A stretch of 39,427 bases of DNA. Origin: a virus. Its lineage: Duplodnaviria > Caudoviricetes. A model generated the notes under the pieces. That model was not told the origin of the DNA, ran no database searches, and worked only from the letters and a program-made list of their open reading frames with translations. A program made the position numbers and the translations under genes. The DNA lies in IMG/VR virus record IMGVR_UViG_3300017700_000374, positions 1 to 39,427 of that record; one strand, 5' to 3'. Below are positions 9,645 through 33,944 of the stretch, in pieces (position 1 is the first letter of the stretch; every line of letters starts with the position of its first letter).

Positions 9645-11785
9645 TGAAAGGCTACGATTTCGAGGCCATCAAGCAGAACTTCCCGCTTGATGAGGTGATC
9701 GGCCGCACGCTGAAAATCCGCAAAGCCGCGGGCTGGTACGAGGCGCTGTGCCCGTTCCATCACGAAACTACCCCCAGCCTGAAGTTCAAGGAGAACGATG
9801 AAAGCTGGCACTGTTTTGGGTGCGGCGAGCATGGTGACGTGATTGACTTCGTTGCCAAGATGGAGAACGTCACGACACAGGAGGCCATCGCGCGTCTGAC
9901 CGGCGGCAAGGCTATCGAGCTTTCCCCGGAGGACCGCGAACGGCGTCAGGCGTGGCTGCAGGCGGAAGAACTTAAGAACCAGGCGGAACGCGCCGCTGCC
10001 ATAGCCCAGGCTAACCGTCGCTGGGACAAGGCAACACCGATCGATGGCGCCAACGCCTATCTGGACCGCAAGCAGGTAGCCCCTTGGGGCACGCGTGCCG
10101 AGGGCGCTAGCCTACTGGTGCCGATGTGGGATTCCGAGGGCGAATTGGTCAACGTGCAGACCATCCCGGCCAAGGACGGCGAGAAGAAGCTGTTTCAGAA
10201 GGGCTCCCCAACGGTCGGCGCGCGTTTCTACATTGGCATCGGTTTCGGGCGCGTAATTATCTGCGAGGGGTTCGCAACCGGCGCCTCGATATTTGAGGCC
10301 ACCGCCGACAAGGTGGTGATCGCCTTTAGCCAGGGGCAGGTCGCCAACATCGCCAAGGAAATGATGTCGGCTGGCGTGTCGGTCGTCATCGCCGCGGATC
10401 GCAAGGCGCTGGACGCCATGCAGCGGCTTGGAGCCGAGCTGGACGTGCCGGTGATCGCGCCCCCAGTGCTGGAGAAGGGCGACGACTTCAACGACCAGAT
10501 GATAGAGCAGGGTGTGGACGCGGTAGCCGCGACGTTCCGCCAGGGGTTGATCGACTACAACAACCGCCCCGAACCCGCGCCCGAGGCGCCTACGTGTGCC
10601 ATATCCTTTGTCGACGCGATGGACTTCAAGGAGGCAGATATTCCCCTGCGGCCGTGGATCGTGCCTGGGGCCTTGCTGGCGGGTTCGACGCATATCCTTG
10701 CGGCGCCGGGCGGCACGGGAAAGTCGGTGTTCACCCTGCAGCTCGCGCTGATGCTGGCGTCAGGTCGAGAATGGGCAAAATGGAAACCCAAGCGCAAGTG
10801 CCGCGTGCTGGTCATCAACGCCGAGGACGATATTCACGAACAGCGCCGCCGTATGGTGGCCGCGCAAACCGTGATGGGGTTCGGTGCGGAACGCGGGCAG
10901 GTGCTGCTGGCGGACGCCCCCGAGAGCATTCTGATGTCCACCAGCGATCCGGTGAAGAAGTCTTTGATTGCAACGCCGCTTGTCGACCAGCTCGTGCAGG
11001 TCATCAAGCATTACAAGATTGACGTCGTGATCGTGGATCCCTTCGCCGAGACGTTTGACGGTGACGAGAATTCCAACGGTGATACCAAGTGGGCAATGAA
11101 AATCTGGCGCGACAAGATCGCCAGGCCAACGGGCGCCGCGGTCTATCTGGTACATCACACGACCAAGGGTTCCGAGGATAAGGCGGGGTCGGCGGATGTC
11201 ATTCGCGGCGGCGGCGCGATCGTCAATTCGGCGCGACTGGCAGCCACCTTGTTCGTGATGTCGAAGGGGGAAGCGTCCGCGCTGAACGTCAACGAGGATC
11301 AGCGGTTTCGGTACGTTCGCTATGACGATGCCAAGTCCAATAACTCTCTGATCGGCGCCCGTTCATGGTTCGAAAAGATATCCGTTGTTTTGCAGAATGG
11401 CCATGCCGGGGATAGCGACGGCGGTGATGAAGTCGGCGCGCTGAAGCCCTGGCAACCCGAGGGACTTGGTGCGTACGAACCGGCACAGATCATGAAGCTG
11501 CTGGCAGCTATCGAGGATGGCTTTGTGGACGAGGATGGCGTTGCCACTGATTTGCCGTTTGGCCGGTCCAAGGCCGGGGGCTCCAAACGCTGGATTGGGC
11601 ACCTCACTGCCGATGTCATGGGTGTGGAAGAGGACGAGGCACGTAAGCTTCTCGGCATGCTGTTGGAGGGTAAGCTGGTCGTTGAAGAGACCTTCCACAA
11701 CCCCATCAAGGGGCGCGACGAGAAGGGGCTGAAGCCCGATTTCGAGGTCGCAAACAAGGCTCTTGGGCTTTCCCCAATTGGGTAG
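9644..11785 (+). CDS. Primase-helicase (CHC2 zinc finger, TOPRIM, AAA_25/RepA-like helicase)
   Basis: CPFHHETTPS...WHCFGCG; ICEGFATG, AAD, GDDFND; APGGTGKS, NAED, VIVDP, LVHHTTK. Confidence 0.92.
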   Translation: MKGYDFEAIKQNFPLDEVIGRTLKIRKAAGWYEALCPFHHETTPSLKFKENDESWHCFGCGEHGDVIDFVAKMENVTTQEAIARLTGGKAIELSPEDRERRQAWLQAEELKNQAERAAAIAQANRRWDKATPIDGANAYLDRKQVAPWGTRAEGASLLVPMWDSEGELVNVQTIPAKDGEKKLFQKGSPTVGARFYIGIGFGRVIICEGFATGASIFEATADKVVIAFSQGQVANIAKEMMSAGVSVVIAADRKALDAMQRLGAELDVPVIAPPVLEKGDDFNDQMIEQGVDAVAATFRQGLIDYNNRPEPAPEAPTCAISFVDAMDFKEADIPLRPWIVPGALLAGSTHILAAPGGTGKSVFTLQLALMLASGREWAKWKPKRKCRVLVINAEDDIHEQRRRMVAAQTVMGFGAERGQVLLADAPESILMSTSDPVKKSLIATPLVDQLVQVIKHYKIDVVIVDPFAETFDGDENSNGDTKWAMKIWRDKIARPTGAAVYLVHHTTKGSEDKAGSADVIRGGGAIVNSARLAATLFVMSKGEASALNVNEDQRFRYVRYDDAKSNNSLIGARSWFEKISVVLQNGHAGDSDGGDEVGALKPWQPEGLGAYEPAQIMKLLAAIEDGFVDEDGVATDLPFGRSKAGGSKRWIGHLTADVMGVEEDEARKLLGMLLEGKLVVEETFHNPIKGRDEKGLKPDFEVANKALGLSPIG

Positions 11786-20274: not shown

Positions 20275-20763
20275 ATGGCAACGTATCAGAGCCTTCAGAT
20301 GGCAGTTCCCCGGTTCCCAGTTTCGGGGCCGGGTATCGGCGGGCGCTCGGTTAAGGTCGAGCGCGCCGTCGTGGACTTCTCGGTCCTCAGCGGCGGCAAC
20401 GCGCAGTCGGTCGCAATCGGCGACGTGATCCAGCTGTTCAAGCTGCACCCCAAGTTCCGCGTGATGCGCGGTTTCGTTAAGGTGGAGACGGCAGCGGCTG
20501 CATCGTCGACGTATACGATCGGCGACGCTGGCGTTGGCGGCGCTGCAGCGGATCCGGCGCGGTTCTTCGCATCGGCATCGGCTGCGGCAGCTGGCACCAA
20601 CCAGGCGCTGGCGGAAACGGGGCGTGACTTCATCTCGTCGCCGAACACGCCGGGTGGCAAGGGGCAGTACACCACGGTCAACATGACCTGGGGCGGCGCT
20701 GCTTCGGGCACGACGGGGCGTATCATCGTCGTGCTTGAGGGCTACATCGAGGAGCCGGCATAA
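20275..20763 (+). CDS. Capsid decoration/cement-like protein
   Basis: Follows MCP; GDVIQLFKL, TIGDAG...DPARF beta-rich pattern. Confidence 0.65.
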   Translation: MATYQSLQMAVPRFPVSGPGIGGRSVKVERAVVDFSVLSGGNAQSVAIGDVIQLFKLHPKFRVMRGFVKVETAAAASSTYTIGDAGVGGAAADPARFFASASAAAAGTNQALAETGRDFISSPNTPGGKGQYTTVNMTWGGAASGTTGRIIVVLEGYIEEPA

Positions 20764-21080
20764 TGGGTGGCACCCTCACCTGGCTGGGGGATAGCGACCC
20801 CACCGCAACCGACGTCACCACGCATGGCATGACGTTCGTCAAGGGCGAGGCCGTGGCGGTCAAGGATAAGGACGTTTTCGAGCGCCTGTCCAAAAACCCC
20901 ATGTTCTCGTCCGAGAAGGACGCCAAGCCGGTTGACGCTGTCGAGCCGGCACCTGTGGATGTAGAGGAAGGCACCGAAAAGGGCGCCATCAAGGATCGTC
21001 TGCGGGCTCTCGGCATTTCGGTGCAGGGTAACCCTTCGCTCGAAACGCTTCGCGGCAAGCTCGCGGACGCGACGAAGTAA
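20763..21080 (+). CDS. Head-associated hypothetical protein (C-terminal HeH/LEM-like helices)
   Basis: Synteny; RLSKNPMF; LRALGISVQGNPSLETLRGKL. Confidence 0.65.
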   Translation: MGGTLTWLGDSDPTATDVTTHGMTFVKGEAVAVKDKDVFERLSKNPMFSSEKDAKPVDAVEPAPVDVEEGTEKGAIKDRLRALGISVQGNPSLETLRGKLADATK

Positions 21081-21766
21081 TGGCAACCGCGCGTTCCGTC
21101 TGCAATCTCGCTCTCCGCAAGCTTGGTGTGCTTGGTGGTGGGCGGGACGCGCGGCCAGCCGATATCAACGACACGCTCGATGCGCTCCGGTCGATGTACA
21201 CCGCATGGGTGTCATCCGGAGCGTTCGGGCGTTTGCGCGATGTAGTGCCGACTGGCACGACGTACATGACAGCGGGCAACGAGCGGATCCTGCGGGAGTC
21301 TGCCGAAACGCTGACAGTAACCCTTCCCGAGCTGGTGTCGCACGCATGGCACGATGATTACGGTAACGAGCCGGTTCGATACTACGGCACGAATGTAATC
21401 GTCTCCACGGTCGATAACCAGACCAATATTACGGTCGAACCGTCGCAGCCTGTCGGTTACGCAGTCCCGCCGCGCGATGGTTCTGCAGTGGTGATCACCG
21501 ACATTGAAGGTGGACAGACGGTCACATGGGTCTACGATGGCCATATCAAGCGCTGGCAATGCGTAGAGCTGTTGCAGTTGGACGATGAAGCGCCGCGGTC
21601 TGTAGCAGACCAGCAGGGCCTTGCTGCGTGTCTGGCAATCGAGGTTTCAGACCAGTTCGGTTCCGATGTCGCCGCGCAGACCGTTGCCGCTGCATCGCGT
21701 TACAAGATCGCGCTGACGTCGCGTTTTGGTATGCGGCGTGAAGAGTCTTATGGAGTGTACATGTAA
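21080..21766 (+). CDS. Head-to-tail adaptor (P22 gp4-like)
   Basis: MATARSVCNLALRKLGVLGGG...DALRSMYTAW and LAACLAIEVSDQFG pattern. Confidence 0.75.
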   Translation: MATARSVCNLALRKLGVLGGGRDARPADINDTLDALRSMYTAWVSSGAFGRLRDVVPTGTTYMTAGNERILRESAETLTVTLPELVSHAWHDDYGNEPVRYYGTNVIVSTVDNQTNITVEPSQPVGYAVPPRDGSAVVITDIEGGQTVTWVYDGHIKRWQCVELLQLDDEAPRSVADQQGLAACLAIEVSDQFGSDVAAQTVAAASRYKIALTSRFGMRREESYGVYM

Positions 21767-22122
21767 TGCCGGGTTCGCGTGTTCGTTCTTCCAGCGCCAT
21801 GCCAGTCTGGCTGGCTGATGATGATTTAAACCCCGTCACCTTGGGTGTGGCGCCGGCGAACGCAGTTTCCAGCGCTCTATCTGGCACCATCGCAACAAGC
21901 GGTGGCACTGCCGCCATCCCGTTCGTCAACACGGCGCGTCAAGAGGTCCTGAACCCGTCTGCTGCCACCCTGTGGGCATCGTGGGGCACTCCTGCTGTCA
22001 ACGGGGCTGGCTCATTCCCGATCGCGCCTGGCGGCACGTTTTCAACCGATCGCACGGCTGGTACGCTGACGTTGCTGTCGACGGCGGCGACGCAGCCGTA
22101 CACCGTTAATCGGTACTCCTGA
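21766..22122 (+). CDS. Virion structural protein, hypothetical
   Basis: Coupled ORF; beta-rich NPSAATLWASWG..A..AGSFPIAPGG. Confidence 0.7.
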   Translation: MPGSRVRSSSAMPVWLADDDLNPVTLGVAPANAVSSALSGTIATSGGTAAIPFVNTARQEVLNPSAATLWASWGTPAVNGAGSFPIAPGGTFSTDRTAGTLTLLSTAATQPYTVNRYS

Positions 22123-22592
22123 TGCCTGACGGTCTCTACAACCCCGGCACGACGCAGGCGCAGCTTGACGCGGTTGCCGCGGCTATGCCGCAGCCTGCCA
22201 CCACGCAGCCGCCCGGTGTGAGCGATTCCGGTGCGCTTGGCACGGACGCTAAATACGCCTTGGCGAACCATACCCACGCCAGCCGCGTTCGCAAGCGCAT
22301 CATCACGATGGGTTCTGCAGCGTCCACCTATGCATGGACGTTCTCGGACAAGGATGGCAATGCGCTGCCTTTCCCGAGCGGAGTTACACCTGTCGTAAGC
22401 TGCATCGTTCAGGTTGCTAACGGCAATACCGATCTGTTTAACGTGCAGGTAATGGGGGCGCCGACCAATACCGGGTGCGTGTTCCAGATCAACCGCGTGT
22501 CGGCCGGGCTTCTGGCGCTGCTGACAGGCGCGCTGTCGATCAACCCAACGCCTGTCGCTGCTACGCTTCACATGATTGCTCTTGAACCGTGA
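22122..22592 (+). CDS. Virion structural/fibre-associated protein
   Basis: GALGTDAKYALANHTH fibre-type repeat; coupled ORF. Confidence 0.65.
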   Translation: MPDGLYNPGTTQAQLDAVAAAMPQPATTQPPGVSDSGALGTDAKYALANHTHASRVRKRIITMGSAASTYAWTFSDKDGNALPFPSGVTPVVSCIVQVANGNTDLFNVQVMGAPTNTGCVFQINRVSAGLLALLTGALSINPTPVAATLHMIALEP

Positions 22593-26008: not shown

Positions 26009-26728
26009 ATGCCTCCCGTAGTTATTGCAGCAGGCGTTGCCGGCGCAGCCGCGATCGGGGGCGCAGCCATCCAGTCGAGCGCTGCGAAGAACGCCGCGAA
26101 GAAGCAGGCGGCACAGGCGCAGTCGGAACAGGCAAGGTTGCAGGCTAACCAGGAATACATCACCGGGCTTAACCAGCCGGCGATCGACCGTGGCAATCTG
26201 GCTGGTTCCTTGCAGGGGAACTTCCTTGGCCTGTCCGGCGGTGACGCGGCGCAACAGGCGCTGCAGACCTATCGCGGTTCGACGGGCTATCAGGATCTGC
26301 TCAACACCGGGTTAGGCGCTGTTAACTCCAACGCTTACGCGCGTGGGCTGGGGGCCTCTGGGGCAACCTTGAAGGCGCTACAGGCCAAGGGTATGGCGAT
26401 TGCAGACCAGTCGTCCGGCACTTGGATGAACGGGCTTCAGGGCCTGTCCAATCAGGGGCAGAACGCCATTGGGCAGGTCGCGGGTGCGGCAACGAACACC
26501 GTGAACAACATCAACCAGTCGACCGGGCAGGCTGCGGATGCGGCATCGAATGCCTCTCTTGCCGGTGGCGCAGCATGGACGGGAGCGCTGCAGAACCTGG
26601 CCAACATTGGCGGTGCGGTCGCTGGTAGCGGGATGCAGTCGAGCTACGGCAGCATGCTTCGCCAGCCGGCCTACGGGCAGCAGGGCAGCAACATGAACTT
26701 CCTTGCCAGCAACGGGTATATGGGCTGA
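26009..26728 (+). CDS. DNA ejection/pilot protein (P22 gp7-like)
   Basis: Hydrophobic Ala/Gly N-terminus, AAKKQA, STGYQ...G..AV...A.ARGL..SGATLKALQ. Confidence 0.8.
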   Translation: MPPVVIAAGVAGAAAIGGAAIQSSAAKNAAKKQAAQAQSEQARLQANQEYITGLNQPAIDRGNLAGSLQGNFLGLSGGDAAQQALQTYRGSTGYQDLLNTGLGAVNSNAYARGLGASGATLKALQAKGMAIADQSSGTWMNGLQGLSNQGQNAIGQVAGAATNTVNNINQSTGQAADAASNASLAGGAAWTGALQNLANIGGAVAGSGMQSSYGSMLRQPAYGQQGSNMNFLASNGYMG

Positions 26729-27465
26729 TGGCCGTCGATTGGTCCCTGCAGGGTCGCGGATTCAATGCGATGGAGGCGTTGCAGTCGTTCGGGCAGGCTC
26801 AGCAGCAGGGTTTGCAGCGTCAGCAGATGGCGTTGGCTCAGCAGCAGCGGGAGCGCGAGGCACAGGCACAGCAACAGGCCATGGCGGCTCGCCAGCAGGC
26901 GTCGCAGCGACTGGCGGTCGGCGACGCTCAGGGCGCGGCTCAGACGGCTGCTGCAGGCGGTGATTTCGACTATGCGCGCTTTGCCGCCACGGCTTCCGAG
27001 GTAGGCCACAAGCAGGCCATGCAGCAGATCGACGAGCTTGGGCAGTTGGCGCTTCTGGCTGACACGCCGGAGAAGTGGGACGCCTACGCCACGCAGTACG
27101 TGCAGCAAGGCCATCCGGAGGCGGCGCGTTTCATCGGCAAGTATTCCCCGGAAACGCGCGCAGCGATCATTGCTCAGGCTGGCAAGGCCAAGGAATTTCT
27201 TGACCAGCAGTCGGTAGACTACAAGGTCATCCCGCCTGGTGGATATCTGCAGGGGTTCGACTCGCGGGGCATTCCGCTTGGTGGCGCGCAGACCACCCCG
27301 CCTGTCGAGCAGATGGCGCCACAGCAAGGAGTCGCTACGTCGAGCGACCTAATGGCCAAGGCGCAGGCAGCTATCGCGGCTGGTGCGGATCCCGCGGCTG
27401 TGATGGCGCGACTGCAACAGATGCAGGGAGGGGCGCCCTCGCAAGGGGGCGCGACGTTTCCGTGA
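26728..27465 (+). CDS. DNA ejection protein (gp20 position)
   Basis: Q/A-rich helical protein between the gp7-like and gp16-like genes. Confidence 0.75.
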
Positions 27466-27712
27466 TCCGCTGCGGGCTCCGGGTACTTTGACAAGCGGTC
27501 GCCGCACCGTTGCCGGGAATCGTGCGGTCGGTGGCGTGCCGACTTCGCATCACCTCACCGGCGATGGTGTCGACTACGCGGGCACTTCGGTTGCGGCTCT
27601 ACGGGGGTATTTCGGCGACAAGGCGCGATATCTGGACGAGGGCGATCACGTACACGTTACGCTACCTGGCTACGGCAAGGTGCCATATTACGGACGCAGG
27701 GGCAGTAAATGA
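27461..27712 (+). CDS. Peptidase M15 (Zn D-Ala-D-Ala peptidase-like) domain, probably expressed as a +1 frameshift extension of the upstream ejection protein
   Basis: TSGRR..N.AVGG...[10 protein letters not shown]...EGDHVHV motifs; only a TTG without SD is available as its own start. Confidence 0.7.
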
Positions 27713-30396
27713 CGCCGCAAGACAATCCTTTCGCAGATTTGATCCCGGCTCAGGCGCAAGGCCAGCAGCCTGTGCAACAGCAGGCACCCGCGCGCATCTA
27801 CGGTGGTCCCAAGCCTGTGGATCCGATGGAGCAGGCTCGCTTCCAGCTTTCGGTCAATTCGGACTCGCGCGCTGCTGATGCGGCGGCACGTGCTGCGGAG
27901 GCCAATGACCGGGCGGCTGCGGCTGCCGAACGGCAGGCTGCGTTAGATGCGCGTAAGCTGACGACTGACGCACGCCTGACGGAAACAGAAGCCAAGACCA
28001 CAGCATTCTATAACCGCGCGCTTGGCGCCAATCGCGACTTCGAAAGCAGCGGCGTCGCAACCGAACCGCGTGGTGTTATCGGGCAGGCTGCTGCAGACAT
28101 CTTGCCTACCGGCATCGTCAACACCTTTACCAGCCCGGAGCGCCAGAAGGCAGAACAGTCCAAGCGTGACTTCATCGCGGCCAGCCTTCGCTACGAATCG
28201 GGCGCGGCCATCTCGCCTGCGGAGTTCGACAAGCAGGATGCCATCTTCTTTCCGCAGCCTGGCGACAGCCCTGATGTGATCTCGCAGAAGCGTCAGGCTC
28301 GCCAGCGCGTTATCGAAAGTTTTGGCATCGGCGCTGGCACTGGTGCGGCTAAGGTCAACGCTATCCGGGGGCCTGAAGGGGCTGCCACGTTCAACGACCA
28401 ACTTGCCCCGACGCAGGCTGGCGTTAACCGCCTCAACCCAGCACAGGACGCCGACTACAAGGCGTTCCTGCTGACGCGGCCTACGCCCGAAGCAATCCGC
28501 CAGCGTTACGCGCTATACGGGGCTGGCGAGCTGTCTCAGGAGAACGCGACCAAGCTGGCTGAGTATTACGCTGCGGGTGGTACCGGCTATGGCGTGGACT
28601 ATAGCGGCATCGAGGCAAAGCCGGTGGACCCCGGCGACGGTACGGCCGGCGCGATCGTTCGCGGCGCCGCCAATGCGGGCTCGCTGGGCCTCGTCAACCG
28701 TATCGGTGCTGCCGTCGACACGATCGGCGGAGATGGCACCTATAACGAAAACCTCAACCGCCGCAGGGGCTATGACCTATATGACCAGGAAAACAACGCT
28801 GCTGCTCGGCTTGGGGGACAGGTTCTCGGTGGTCTCGCCGTGCCGCTTATCGGCGGAACCAGCGCCGCCAACCTTGCCTTCAACGGCGCAGGTATCGGAG
28901 CGCTTTACGGCTATAACGATAGCTATGGTGATACCACTTCTCGCCTTGCTTCGGCAGGTGCTAGCGCTGTAGCAGGTGGCGCCCTTGGTTACGCCGGGGG
29001 ACGCGCTGCGGAATGGCTTGGCGCACGTGGCGGTGGTACTCCGCCGCCTCCGGGCCCGGGACAACAGCTTATGGAGGCCGCAGGGCGCCAGGGTGTGGAC
29101 CCGCTGCCTGCTGACGTAGGTGGGCCTATGACCCGTCGCTTCACGGCAGGCGCTGCGCAGGCGCCGCTGTCGTCGGGGCCGATTATCCGCGGTGGTCAGC
29201 GTGTTTCCGACCAGATCGGCGCCGCGCGGGATCGTGTGGCGGCTGGAGTAGGCGCGATAGAGCAGCCGGTTGCGGCCGGCGAGACGGCGCAGCGTGGCGC
29301 GGGGACGTATATCCGCCAATCGCGCGAACAGGTTGGCGGGCTGTACGATGCGGCACGTTCGGCGGCTGGTGACGCTCGCCCTGTGCCTGAGCGCGCTATC
29401 GCCGCGGTGCAGACCAACCTGCGGGAATTGGCAGAGACGCCTAACACCAGCGCTCCTGTAACAGCCGCCTTGCAAAGCCTTGGCGAGGATCTACAGGCGC
29501 CTGGCGGGCTGTCGATCGATGCATTGCGCCGCCTTCGCACCAACGTTCGTGGGATCGCACAAACCGACCAGCTTCGTGGCACTGATTTCCAGCGGCGTGC
29601 AGGGCAGGTTCTGGACGCCATCTCGGAAGACATCGCCGCCGGGTTGCAGCCGGAAGCCCGCGCTCGCTTCCTTGCCGCTGACCGCGCCCACCGTGAACGC
29701 GTCGAAACGATAGACGAGGTGATCAAGCCCATCATCGGCGGGCGCAACGAAAAGGCGTTCGCACCCGAGCGCGTGTATCAGAACCTGCAGAATGCAAGCC
29801 GTAGTGATTCCGCGCGGCTACGTCGGTTCATGGACACCTTGCCGGCGGAAGACCAGGCGAGCGTTCGGGCAACTGTTATCAGCCAGCTCGGGCGAGCAAC
29901 CAACGGCGCACAGAATGCAGAGGGCACGGCATTCTCTCCGGCGGCATTCCTGACGCAGTGGAACCAAATGACGCCGCGCGCGAAGGATGTGCTGTTTCGT
30001 GGTGAGGCAAGGGATGCATTGAACGATCTGGCGCGCATCACCGAGGGCACCAAGCAGGCTGCAGGCTACGCCAACCGATCAAACACCGCGGGCGCCGCTG
30101 CAACCAACGTCGGTGCGCTTATCGGTATCGGTTCGTTGTCTCCACAGGCTGCCATTGCGGGCGCTGTAGGGCAGATGATCACCGGTCGCCTGCTTGCATC
30201 GCCGCGTTTCGCTCGGTGGCTGGCACGACCCGCTGCAGGTCCTGAAGGTCTCGCCACGGCAGCACGTCGCCTATCTGGCATTGCCGCGCGTGAACCGGCT
30301 ATCGCAAACGACATTCTTCCGATCCAGCGCGCGTTGCAGGAGACGCTACCAACCCGTGCTGCGGCGGAAGATAAGAAACAAAAACGCCGGCAGTAG
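27709..30396 (+). CDS. Large DNA ejection/internal virion protein (gp16 position)
   Basis: 895-aa Ala/Gly-rich; NPFADLIP start, [27 protein letters not shown] motifs. Confidence 0.82.
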
Positions 30397-30480: not shown

Positions 30481-31917
30481 ATGAGCATCGTCAACATCGA
30501 ATTTCCCGGCAACCTGGCGCAGGTCGATACTGCGCCGGAGTTGCGGCGGGTACCAGTCGGCGTTCTTAACTCCAGTGTTTTGGCCCTTGTGGTGGCATTG
30601 GAAGGAATGTTTAAATACGACTCCGGTTCTTTTGCTGCTGACGATGGCACAACCGTTCTAAAACCAGACGGCGTTACGACGCTGCAGGCGGGACGATGGG
30701 TCAAGTCTACCAGTGCGTTCGGCCGGGGCCCCCAAGGACTCCCCGGCGAGGGTATTGGGACTACGATTCAGACGAATGTGCCGGGAGGTAACGGCGGCCA
30801 GGGGTTCAGCTCTCGCCTGATGGTCTTTGAGGATAATCGAGATGCTACGGCAGATGGCGCCGGTAAATCGGATGCTCTACAGATCGTCCACAGCTTTGGG
30901 GGCTCTTTAACCAAAGGCGGTCGTCACGCGATCGAAACGTTCTGCGTGCAGATTGCGCCGACGCCCTTGTCCAACCCGGACCAGAACTACGTCGGCGGCG
31001 CGTTCACTGGCTTTGCACAGAGTCATGATAACGGCACGGCAGAAGCCTCGCGCGGCGGCATGTTTGGCATCAATGGTGTGGGGCGCCTTGGCGCAAATGC
31101 CACCTTTTATCACAACGTCACCGGCGCGGAGTTCAACACCGAGGTTGTTGAGGGCGCATCGGTTCATTACAAGTCGCTGATCCAGCTTACGGGGTTTGCA
31201 ACCGATGCCGTGCGCGGGACTGACTATGACGCGATGATCTCGATGTCCCGGCAGGCTGGCGGTGTGTCGTTCAAGGACGGCATCCTGTTCTCCGAGGCTA
31301 ACGGGCAATCCCCCATGGGGGCTGACAGCTCGTTGATGCGCACGCAGGGTGTAGCGCAGTGCCTGAACGGTATCGATCTCAGCAGCTATATTTTCACGGG
31401 GTATGGCCTTCGTATCGGCAACGCACCTGAAGGCCAGCGGGCCGGTGTGGGTATCAGGCAGTTTGCGAACGGCACCGTTGGTTTGCACTTCCAGCGCTTC
31501 ACCGACACGGCGCCTACCGGCAACATTTTCCAGCTTGTGAACTCGACCAACTCAGCCGTGATCACGCAACTGACTGCGACCGGAGTTTTCACCACCGAGA
31601 ACGTTATCTCCGGGGCAATGACGGCGAATACGCTGACGGTCGGTGTTGGGGGCCTTGATACGCCGGTTGCTCGTATAGGTGCAGGCGGCGTCGTCACCCC
31701 CACCGTCGACAACGGGTTGAACGGCGTTCTGGCGGTTGGCGGTGTCGGAGCCGCAGCGGAAATCCAAATCCGCAAACCCCTGGTCACCAGCGGCACGACG
31801 ACCCCGGTAACGCTGGCATCGACCGGCGGTGCGGGTCCGACGACTGCTGCCCAAAATAGCTGGGTGCGTTTTCTTGATTCGACGGGCGTTCCTTTTTGGG
31901 TGCCGGCTTGGAAGTGA
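30481..31917 (+). CDS. Tailspike / receptor-binding protein
   Basis: GMFKYDSGSFAADDGTTV...GRWVK N-terminal tailspike motif; Gly-rich beta body; position after the ejection genes as for P22 gene 9. Confidence 0.8.
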   Translation: MSIVNIEFPGNLAQVDTAPELRRVPVGVLNSSVLALVVALEGMFKYDSGSFAADDGTTVLKPDGVTTLQAGRWVKSTSAFGRGPQGLPGEGIGTTIQTNVPGGNGGQGFSSRLMVFEDNRDATADGAGKSDALQIVHSFGGSLTKGGRHAIETFCVQIAPTPLSNPDQNYVGGAFTGFAQSHDNGTAEASRGGMFGINGVGRLGANATFYHNVTGAEFNTEVVEGASVHYKSLIQLTGFATDAVRGTDYDAMISMSRQAGGVSFKDGILFSEANGQSPMGADSSLMRTQGVAQCLNGIDLSSYIFTGYGLRIGNAPEGQRAGVGIRQFANGTVGLHFQRFTDTAPTGNIFQLVNSTNSAVITQLTATGVFTTENVISGAMTANTLTVGVGGLDTPVARIGAGGVVTPTVDNGLNGVLAVGGVGAAAEIQIRKPLVTSGTTTPVTLASTGGAGPTTAAQNSWVRFLDSTGVPFWVPAWK

Positions 31918-32219: not shown

Positions 32220-32732
32220 TTGGCGCCGTTGATTATCTTCGGCGTATTGTGTGCCGCGGCCTTATTGGTCGCGGCATGCTCTTATCAGGACCGTAGCTGC
32301 CTTATCGTGGCGGCGTTGCTGGTGTGCGTGAATTGGCTGACGTTCGCGATGCCGTGGATATATAATCCGGCGTCCTTTGCACACCTTTTGGTAGCAGCAG
32401 GTATTCCAGCCCATCACGAAGATGTCTGGTCAGTTATGGATCTTGTTTGCCTCGTTACGGTAATTGTTGTGTGCCGGCACACATGGTGGGCGCCCGTATT
32501 GTGGGCACCATACCTGATCATGCTTGCAATGCTAGCGGTAGCATGGGCGAACGATTTAGAATATGTAGCATACAAGGACGTTCTGGACGCTGCTTTGATT
32601 GTCCAGCTCGCGACGTTGTTCGTGGTAGGAGGTGGCGGCTGTGCCGATCGTGTGTTTGATTGTTGCCGTCGCCTTCGTGGGATGGGCGGCAGTGCCAGCG
32701 AGCTGGCTAGACGTTCGGAGGTGGCGCGGTGA
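32220..32732 (+). CDS. Polytopic membrane protein (about 5 TM)
   Basis: GGAGGA RBS with TTG start; several hydrophobic segments; lower GC than neighbours. Confidence 0.75.
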   Translation: MAPLIIFGVLCAAALLVAACSYQDRSCLIVAALLVCVNWLTFAMPWIYNPASFAHLLVAAGIPAHHEDVWSVMDLVCLVTVIVVCRHTWWAPVLWAPYLIMLAMLAVAWANDLEYVAYKDVLDAALIVQLATLFVVGGGGCADRVFDCCRRLRGMGGSASELARRSEVAR

Positions 32733-33043
32733 TCAATGACAGCGATATGCGCCATATCTGGATGTTCATGTCCGCATTGGCCGGCGCTGTCACCGCCCTG
32801 GCTCAGATGACCTATAAAGAGATGAGTTGGGCTGACATAGCACTGACGCTCTTTTCCGGTTTTGGTTTCGCAGTGTTTTTCATGCCATCAGTCGCCCAAT
32901 GGATGGGTGTCGACGAAAATAACATCAGGGCCACGAACGCCATCGTTTATATCGGTGGCACGGGCTGGAATATTCTTATGCCGTTCGCCATCCAGCGCGC
33001 GAAAGCAGGCCTCGCCATCTTCGGCGGAAAGGATCCGGCATGA
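32729..33043 (+). CDS. Holin-like membrane protein
   Basis: Three hydrophobic segments; upstream of the endolysin. Confidence 0.6.
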   Translation: MINDSDMRHIWMFMSALAGAVTALAQMTYKEMSWADIALTLFSGFGFAVFFMPSVAQWMGVDENNIRATNAIVYIGGTGWNILMPFAIQRAKAGLAIFGGKDPA

Positions 33044-33363
33044 CCGTGTTCGACTTTCTGAACGTCACCGGGCGCTTACTGCTGGTCGGCATCGTGGTGT
33101 TCAAGCTGACACAGTTCCGCGAGATGGCGAACGTCGCCGAACGGTTCGGGCTTGGGTTGATGGGTGCGGGTTCGTTCCTGACCATTCCCGTCATCCTGTT
33201 CAAAAACCAGAATCCGTTTGAGGGGTGGGCTGTGTCGCTGCTGACGTACGGCGTGATCCTGTTCCTGTCGGGCCGTACGTGGCGGGATTACAAGCATGCG
33301 CGTGCCAACCGGCAAATGGTGCGGCAGGGTGAAGTTTGGAGAGCACAGAGAGGTAAGCCATGA
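33040..33363 (+). CDS. Membrane protein (3 TM, basic C-tail), holin/antiholin candidate
   Basis: Hydrophobic segments; coupled to the endolysin. Confidence 0.6.
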   Translation: MTVFDFLNVTGRLLLVGIVVFKLTQFREMANVAERFGLGLMGAGSFLTIPVILFKNQNPFEGWAVSLLTYGVILFLSGRTWRDYKHARANRQMVRQGEVWRAQRGKP

Positions 33364-33944
33364 GAACACAGATCTTCGAAGCGATCCGGGCAGCGCGCAC
33401 TGACAAGACGTTCGACATGGACGAAGTGGCAGCGATCGACGCCATGCTCGATAAACTGGGGGTGCCGCGGGTCGAGGGTGGCAATGACTGGCTTCCGTTC
33501 GCGCTGTCGTTGATTAAGCAGTTCGAGGGTTGCAAGCTGACTGCGTACCCAGATCCTGGGACTGGCGGAAAGCCCTTCACGATTGGTTGGGGGTCCACGA
33601 CGGACGGTCAGGGCGCGGCGATCGCGCCGGGCACGAAATGGACGCAGCCGCAGGCTGACCAGCGCCTCGCCAGCCACGTCGCTGAGTTTGCCAGGGGCGT
33701 GGACAAGCTGCTCGGTGGCGCGGCTACTACAGCGGCTCAGAAGGGTGCGCTGGTGTCTCTGGCCTATAATATCGGCCTAGGCAACCTTGGGTCTTCCACG
33801 CTGCTCAGGAAGCATAACGCCGCCGACTATGACGGTGCCGCCGCGCAGTTCGCTGTGTGGAACAAGGCCGCGGGTAAGGTGATGCAGGGGCTGGTGAATC
33901 GGCGGACTGCTGAGGCCCGGGTTTATAAGGGGCTGCCGGCATGA
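33360..33944 (+). CDS. Endolysin, GH24 phage lysozyme
   Basis: IKQFEGCKLTAYPDPGTGGKPFTIGWGST catalytic E-D-T, LVSLAYNIG, SSTLLRK, GLVNRRTAE. Confidence 0.95.
   Translation: MRTQIFEAIRAARTDKTFDMDEVAAIDAMLDKLGVPRVEGGNDWLPFALSLIKQFEGCKLTAYPDPGTGGKPFTIGWGSTTDGQGAAIAPGTKWTQPQADQRLASHVAEFARGVDKLLGGAATTAAQKGALVSLAYNIGLGNLGSSTLLRKHNAADYDGAAAQFAVWNKAAGKVMQGLVNRRTAEARVYKGLPA

Follow-up and report, generated by a model that had tools for sequence, protein, structure and literature searches.

The window analysed here is one complete virus record of 39,427 nt (39.4 kb). It encodes a P22-like portal, a phrog_334 capsid and a head-closure protein upstream of three ejection genes. The first of these (26009..26728, + strand) encodes a P22 gp7-like protein of 239 aa that matches phrog_598 'DNA ejection' with an E-value of 4.9e-17. 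The second (26728..27465, + strand) is an open reading frame (ORF) with a zero-frame product of 245 aa, which would be gp20-like by position, being the middle one of the three ejection genes that follow the head-closure gene, as gp20 is in P22. Searches of Pfam and PHROG with the 245-aa protein and 34 relatives gave no sequence match to Inj_translocase or to a gp20 PHROG. The protein has an ESM Atlas lead of 0.85 to Inj_translocase, which is under the acceptance bar, and a tblastn match to the Pan3 'ejection protein' (E 5e-8). The large third gene (27709..30396, + strand) is an ORF of 895 aa that is gp16-like by position, and its ESM lead to Phage_P22_gp16 (0.83) is also under the acceptance bar. 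Elsewhere in the window, four small late genes between the capsid gene and a tail-fibre-like gene (20275-22592) have no Pfam match, and a 478-aa product (30481-31917) matches neither Pfam nor PHROG.

The second ejection gene ends in a composite element on the + strand. The element opens with an internal Shine-Dalgarno (SD)-like hexamer, GGAGGG (27427..27432; GGAGG at 27427-31, then G), which is GGAGGU in most relatives. Its pairing with the anti-SD is worth -11.1 kcal/mol, the strongest among 16 sites tested, and the anti-SD is canonical in all four candidate host genomes. An 8-bp hairpin, GCGCCCTC-GCAA-GGGGGCGC (27433..27452), adjoins the SD and is assigned from folding and from covariation in relatives. 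It has a free energy of -16.1 kcal/mol and makes up 97% of the ensemble, with z-scores of -4.07 as a 20-mer, -1.87 as a 51-mer and 0.05 as a 101-mer. The geometry then gives a 4-nt single-stranded spacer, GACG (27453..27456), which includes the E-site codon ACG. The predicted +1 shift site UUU_C follows at 27457..27460 (TTT at 27457-59, then CCG), where tRNA-Phe would move from UUU to UUC. The zero-frame stop TGA (27463..27465) lies one codon past the shift site, and 88 of 107 relatives with a +1 arrangement have a stop at the same place. The preliminary description had placed the GGAGG, stem-loop, TTT and TGA correctly throughout.

Synonymous recoding of 11 codons with the codon usage of the phage (20,000 recodings) yielded a fold as good as that of the window in 0.5% of cases, kept GGAGG in 7.9% and TTT in 15%, and kept all three features in none. 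A second copy was not found in the window, where an RNA model of the element matches only the junction site, and weakly (E 0.75), because the model was built on a 7-bp register. A loose pattern has 4 matches in the window against 3.45 expected. An Rfam search of 27300-27800 returned no family, and its single match (E 9.4) is at chance level.

The +1 frame is open from 27404 to 27712, as had been reported, and from the shift site onward (27458..27712, + strand) it encodes 83 aa beyond the Phe, a compact zinc-peptidase domain of the M15/LAS type. The fusion would have 327 aa (244+83), the length given at the outset. The frame matches Peptidase_M15_3 (PF08291) with 32.7 bits against a cutoff of 23.2. 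Zinc ligands of M15/LAS enzymes lie in H-x6-D and H-x-H motifs. The extension has both, with predicted ligands at His 27551, Asp 27572 and the His-x-His of 27647-27655, and they are invariant in 18 aligned relatives. The best sequence match in the PDB is the Zn DD-peptidase 1lbu (E 0.009). It is also the best fold match (probability 0.99, TM 0.54, E 0.05), which is not significant alone and was made with a model of pLDDT 66; Hedgehog and ChiX rank below it. The extension is a predicted cell-wall peptidase with a predicted location in the virion. It is not the endolysin, since the window has a separate lysis cassette (32729-33944) with a holin-like gene at 32729 and a lysozyme gene at 33360. 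Apart from that lysozyme, no other muralytic domain was recognized in the 17 to 29 ORFs scanned, in agreement with the preliminary description. The host of the window phage is likely a sphingomonad, since 18 of 21 genome-collection loci with an M15 domain are assigned to Sphingomonas, Sphingobium, Rhizorhapis or Sphingomonadales.

The hydrolase stop and the start codon of the third, large ejection gene overlap (ATGA, 27709-27712), and the large ORF starts -4 to +4 nt from the hydrolase stop in 164 of 189 loci. A role for the slip rate in controlling the next gene through coupling was considered but is not needed, since the next gene has its own SD (median -6.0 kcal/mol; -5 or better in 115 of 164).

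Loci L003-L206 came from protein searches that used both the M15 frame and an alignment of it (A1). These gave 125 junctions after duplicate removal, and 5 more were re-anchored; 8 distant matches below 75 bits and 8 weak matches without an anchor were left out, and 122 distinct junctions were kept, among them the window's own record (L106). The element was called as an SD-like word 20-35 nt before TTTC followed by the best hairpin, and it was found in 121 of the 122. The hydrolase is in the +1 frame in 107 junctions, in frame in 8 and in the -1 frame in 6, while one has no signal. From TTC to the domain, the +1 frame is stop-free in all 107 +1 loci. Their linkers are 11 codons as standard, and 6 to 118 codons in 26 of them. 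Two loci have CGAGGT (Arg-Gly) in place of GGAGGT. Because of kinship, the relatives count as fewer independent events than the number of loci. In the sole member without the element (L155) the upstream ORF stops and an ATG lies shortly before the M15 domain; its hydrolase is possibly a separately translated form.

An assembly error, or a decayed pseudogene of an in-frame fusion, could produce the same arrangement, and in-frame fusions do exist one base away from the +1 form. However, the check for an indel that the preliminary description had proposed found none in two runs, at the level of contigs without raw reads: the junction is identical in one contig of the likely source run (~80x), and a contig from another study that is ~89% alike has no indel there. 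The phase is also the same in 202 distinct elements, which come from assemblies of viruses, metagenomes and isolates and keep their catalytic residues. An artifact or pseudogene is almost certainly not the explanation.

The alignment of homologous loci gave the expected compensatory stem changes together with a +1-frame hydrolase. Covariation was scored in 68 protein-found elements that had been sorted into a 7-bp register by pairing, with 22 elements of the 8-bp register, including the window, left out. In this set 89.1% of cells are paired, a value that leans towards structure because the 68 elements were picked by pairing. All seven stem pairs have changes on both sides, and C-G, G-C and A-U pairs occur in the same column. 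None of 500 shuffles reached the covariation score, and slid controls pair in 35-46% of cells. Stem compensation in these alignments is real despite the register sorting. A lower stem that would pair the SD with the E-site and shift-site bases was rejected, as the register tested does not covary (62.5% paired, against 62.1% in shuffles). Other, slid registers of this lower stem pair in 84-91% and lie between near-invariant columns, which makes them uninformative.

The geometry of the signal is nearly fixed. The stem begins directly after the SD hexamer in 103 of 106 +1 loci (L171 left out of the count), and a single-stranded spacer of 4-6 nt follows stems of 5 to 9 bp in 105 of 106. SD-to-UUU distances of 27, 30 and 33 nt go with stems of 5-6, 6-8 and 8-9 bp, respectively. 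The hexamer is not a by-product of a Gly-Gly pair, because its sixth base is U in 159 of 171 elements and only 19 of 568 other Gly-Gly pairs in the carrier genes are GGA-GGT. The GNRA loop, which had been described as part of the signal, is incidental: loop sequence is free, with GNRA in 25 of 164 distinct +1 spacers.

Scans of DNA alone reached the same arrangement. Two DNA patterns gave 151 distinct matches, of which 126 passed a filter that asked for a hairpin at least as stable as -8.5 kcal/mol and for the TTT to be in frame with a long ORF. In 117 of the 126 the zero frame stops within 15 codons and the +1 frame runs for at least 70 aa; the rest are 4 in-frame and 5 other matches. Among matches with weak hairpins, 2 of 20 pass the same test of stop and +1 frame. 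A control scan of half of the collection fixed only the SD and the stem edges, with no 3' constraint, and gave 96 distinct matches, 79 with a full stem. TTT lies exactly at +30 in 77 of the 79, but in none of the 17 without a full stem. The base directly after TTT in these 77 is C in 75 and T in 2 and is never a purine, which fits a slip of tRNA-Phe since this tRNA must re-pair in the +1 frame. The two T variants (TTT-TAA) are the only cases with a stop directly after UUU.

The extensions recovered by these DNA-only scans form 11 clusters. Among their 11 representatives, M15 domains comprise three with a PF08291 match (or close kin with a match) and two more that match endolysin PHROGs; four are SLT transglycosylases, two are domains that match phrog_873 'endolysin', and one has no match. 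The carrier proteins are also varied (167 in 16 clusters), and the largest cluster bears M15, SLT and other extensions. As judged from the sequences, the cassette is portable, and several unrelated hydrolase families (M15, SLT and lysozyme-like) appear to have been swapped behind one signal. An unnamed domain of ~95 aa that starts with GNIDL was also seen behind the cassette (L033, L052, L063, L349, L278 and P0036), alone or in tandem with M15 or SLT. It has no Pfam or PHROG match in L349 and is possibly another wall-acting or binding domain.

The pattern was also found in 11 of 401 Sphingomonadales genomes, with 13 matches, 5 of them to the phage element itself. The remaining matches were dismissed as chance or as an unrelated gene with TTC in frame (L403, L404 and L407, with a hairpin present), and use of the signal by a host chromosome was not found in the 401 genomes searched. 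A whole-genome search with the RNA model is insensitive, as it missed 2 of 5 known elements.

A conserved arrangement of an SD, a hairpin and UUU_C could also bring about initiation. The hairpin may act as in T4 genes 38 and 25, where it shortens the SD spacing (from 22 to 5 nt in gene 38, the same geometry; PMC3014915), so that a split ribosome-binding site or re-initiation would produce the hydrolase as a separate small protein. The proposed starts are the TTG at 27488, an ATG a few codons in, or the Phe codon. ATG, GTG, TTG or CTG is present at the position of TTG 27488 in 94 of 104 loci, and 36 of 77 have an ATG at codon 5. In the T4 genes an AUG is positioned for initiation, whereas the phage hairpin points to a Phe codon that is read in frame within an ORF. 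At the distance suited to initiation there is always UUU or UUC and never a start codon, and initiation would give no reason for the first U of UUU_C. In addition, no ATG, GTG or TTG precedes the first catalytic residue in 31 of 186 loci (21 of 44 SLT and 10 of 142 M15 loci; 16 of the 202 elements have no family assignment).

The protein encoded upstream of the TTG is itself conserved. In 77 standard loci the motif D-P-x-x-A-P-G is near-invariant as protein, with codon positions 1 and 2 of D, P, A, P and G fixed and position 3 free (third-position variation of 1.0-1.9 bits). Natural fusions with an N-terminal part of at least 120 aa make up 99 of the best 120 of 180 longer homologs. Met is found at the TTG position in 82 of these 99 fused proteins, where no start is needed and where it is equally common, and a GG-x7-10-F motif before the domain is kept in 73. 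Nine in-frame fusions also retain an intact element. The SD before the NTG is weak (median -2.95 kcal/mol). In the window, TTG 27488 had been called the only start and without an SD; it is the first start only, since GTG 27536 also precedes the zinc ligands, and its anti-SD pairing is weak and not absent (-4.4 kcal/mol, like some real starts here). A separate hydrolase made from its own start is very unlikely.

The exact site of the slip is constrained by the codons that follow. A slip at the next codon, while tRNA-Pro occupies the P site and a stop the A site, or a short hop, would give the fusion with a different junction residue; it is suggested by the commonest context, TTT CCC TGA, and by CCC_UGA +1 sites known in Listeria phages and pheL (PMC5009743). 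However, the second codon is CGC, CGT, CCG, CTC, TAA or TCG in more than half of the loci, where the tRNA cannot re-pair, and the stop is lacking in 19 of 107; the invariant part is UUU_Y alone. This possibility is extremely unlikely. The slip could also be made by RNA polymerase, with the hairpin driving the loss of one base and producing the same fusion, as in the Roseiflexus IS630 T5C5 case. A nascent hairpin beside a slip motif is known to give transcripts that are one base short (PMC5009743), and the hairpin, 5 nt and TTTC would span 9 nt, the length of the RNA-DNA hybrid. Yet the run is only T3, and its varied neighbours (CCC, CGC, CGT and TAA) leave no register for re-pairing. Nothing would explain the conserved SD, a C or T as fourth base would be needless for a base deletion, and the -1 form of the element has an in-phase, tRNA-compatible heptamer. 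Polymerase slippage is therefore highly improbable.

The conserved SD-hairpin-UUU_C signal very probably drives a programmed +1 ribosomal frameshift that would fuse the predicted hydrolase to a fraction of the ejection subunits. The slip of tRNA-Phe put forward in the preliminary description is supported, at the level that comparison of sequences allows, by the phase, covariation, geometry and restriction of the fourth base to C or U, and it fits the coding conservation upstream of the TTG, the start-less relatives and the natural in-frame fusions. The 16S anti-SD would pair with GGAGGN as the hexamer exits the ribosome. The covariation and fixed geometry suggest that the next 17-23 nt then refold as a hairpin flush against the SD helix, with 4-6 nt between its end and the P-site codon, so that the SD may stay paired, or re-pair, ~8 codons back. 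With peptidyl-tRNA-Phe on UUU, strain from the SD and hairpin beside the E site would shift the tRNA to UUC, possibly aided in most relatives by the stop one codon on. The +1 frame is open from there into the hydrolase. The short and long forms might then be packaged together and reach the periplasm on ejection, where the few subunits that bear a hydrolase would open the peptidoglycan.

The A-site codons at the shift sites (CCC, CGC, CCA and CCG) are not evidently rare. UUUC gives a +1 shift of 4-13% in an alphaproteobacterial integrative element (ICE; PMC4755241), and synthetic 5' hairpins stimulate +1 shifts on 70S ribosomes, an effect that needed a stalled ribosome without RF2 (PMC6321510). 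SD hybrids have been deduced to last only 5-7 nt of travel (PMC5009743); the role of the SD at the present spacing is proposed to be new. P22 gp20 assembles into a 12-mer with a barrel that spans the peptidoglycan (preprint 10.64898/2026.09.03.749273), so that a hydrolase at the C-terminus of a few subunits is plausible. If the rate were the 4-13% of msi172, simple arithmetic would put the hydrolase on about one subunit in twelve. A low share of hydrolase is not required everywhere, since many in-frame fusions exist.

Sister forms of the element differ in frame. Six of the 8 protein-found in-frame loci are intact; in one (L132) the stem has decayed, and another (L052) has TTT-T. Stems of -11 to -17 kcal/mol are retained in nine distinct in-frame loci, where the +1 frame reaches a stop within 3-10 codons. 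A slip in the in-frame form would truncate the protein, and both forms would still be made. Alternatively, the one-base conversion may be too recent for the signal to have decayed. The in-frame fusion with a decayed hairpin (L132:2440-2500) is likely a loss of the signal after the frames were joined.

The -1 form (L536-L541 and L152) has its own consensus, with a stem of 3-4 bp (-3 to -6 kcal/mol) and C_CCU_UUC. A scan with the -1 pattern gave six matches, all with the hydrolase in the -1 frame; one is an SLT, and both M15 and SLT are represented. CCC precedes TTT in all six protein-found -1 loci, against 4 of 202 +1 elements, and an in-phase X_XXY_YYZ heptamer (C_CCU_UUC) is present in the six and in L538; L095, of the -1 class, is the same contig as L536. 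Known -1 sites have an SD 9-14 nt upstream (PMC5009743), and looping out of the weak stem would bring the SD of the -1 form near that distance. According to a quick, unfinished tree with few columns, built from 118 M15 domains, the -1 label changed at least 4 times; the tree does not order events. In a broader proposal, to which we give an even chance, elongating ribosomes hold the SD helix ~8 codons back by extruding the stacked hairpin. Stem strength and register would then set the direction (6-9 bp with UUU_Y for +1; 3-4 bp with C_CCU_UUC for -1), and the cassette would be a plug-in dial that caps the number of hydrolase-bearing subunits.

Several known systems share parts of this arrangement. 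The RF2 gene prfB also has a +1 slip in the P site, close to a UGA stop and preceded by an internal SD, and the preliminary comparison with it stands for the presence of the SD but fails for the spacing. The prfB SD is 3 nt from CUU_UGA without a hairpin (PMC5009743), whereas the SD of the phage element is 21-27 nt away across loci (25 nt linear in the window, and 4-6 nt with the hairpin looped out), with a covarying stem between it and UUU_Y and with the stop outside the A site at the slip; a sense CNN codon follows UUU in all 107 +1 loci. The msi172-msi171 (FseA) site of Mesorhizobium ICEs is alike in its UUUC, its move of tRNA-Phe from UUU to UUC, its alphaproteobacterial mobile element, its G-rich upstream region and its single-ORF and two-ORF variants. 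It differs in that the product is a regulator and not a virion protein, the available text names no hairpin, and there is no swapping of downstream domains (PMC4755241). The SARS-CoV 5' attenuator and synthetic hairpins resemble the phage hairpin in that a hairpin placed ~4 nt upstream of the site raises +1 and lowers -1 shifting, also on 70S ribosomes for the synthetic ones. As described, however, the +1 stimulation was synthetic only, with SD and hairpin as alternatives, while the phage has a natural tandem (PMC5009743, PMC6321510).

Addition of a C-terminal domain to a share of virion subunits is known from the Ig-like domains of T3, A2, A118 and PSA, by +1, -1 or in-frame decoding. Each of those signals is thought to have arisen by chance after the domain landed (PMC5009743), whereas the cassette reuses one conserved signal, on an internal ejection protein and with enzymes. 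Podovirus ejection proteins such as T7 gp16 and K1E gp35 also bear a mobile wall hydrolase, but in frame on every copy (PMC8954989), and frameshifting is not mentioned in the available text of that article or of the P22 channel preprint (10.64898/2026.09.03.749273). The SD-hairpin-UUU_C layout was not found in Rfam or in the literature searched, which covered few subscription papers; within this scope the composite 5' signal appears undescribed, as had been supposed from the window.

In bacteria, the known stimulators of +1 shifting are an SD at close spacing or stalling at the A site. The present signal is common to about two hundred related bacterial viruses. If the proposed reading is true, it would be a natural, widely conserved 5' stimulator of 34 nt, for which nature supplies covarying variants by the hundred and versions in the +1, 0 and -1 frames, and how the mRNA behind the ribosome sets the direction of a slip would become open to direct tests. 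The location of the entry hydrolase in these P22-like phages would also be explained, and a limited copy number in the ejection tube suggested. Annotations would be corrected as well, such as that of Pam1 gp15, which was called as a fragment of 49 aa.

Cultured phages provide one example of the element. In Pseudanabaena phage Pam1 (ON014753.1, L409:11173-11515) it ends gp14 with UUU_U (model E 6e-4), and the +1 frame runs to 11515. The annotated gp15, which starts at 11366, is the last part of this frame, the C-terminal half of the domain without the first zinc ligand. The word 'frameshift' is absent from the available text of PMC9382816 and from its text supplement. The element was not found in the examined stretches of Pan3, Pam5, CBW1004C-Prop1 and KLEP18-1. 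Sphingopyxis phage VSN-002 has an M15-like domain in frame inside a gp20-like protein, and no element was seen by eye before it. The stretches of Pam1, Pan3 and Pam5 (L408-L410 and L413) have 54-64% G+C and their ejection genes resemble those of sphingomonad phages; as a speculation, the true host of these three phages might be a co-cultured heterotroph.
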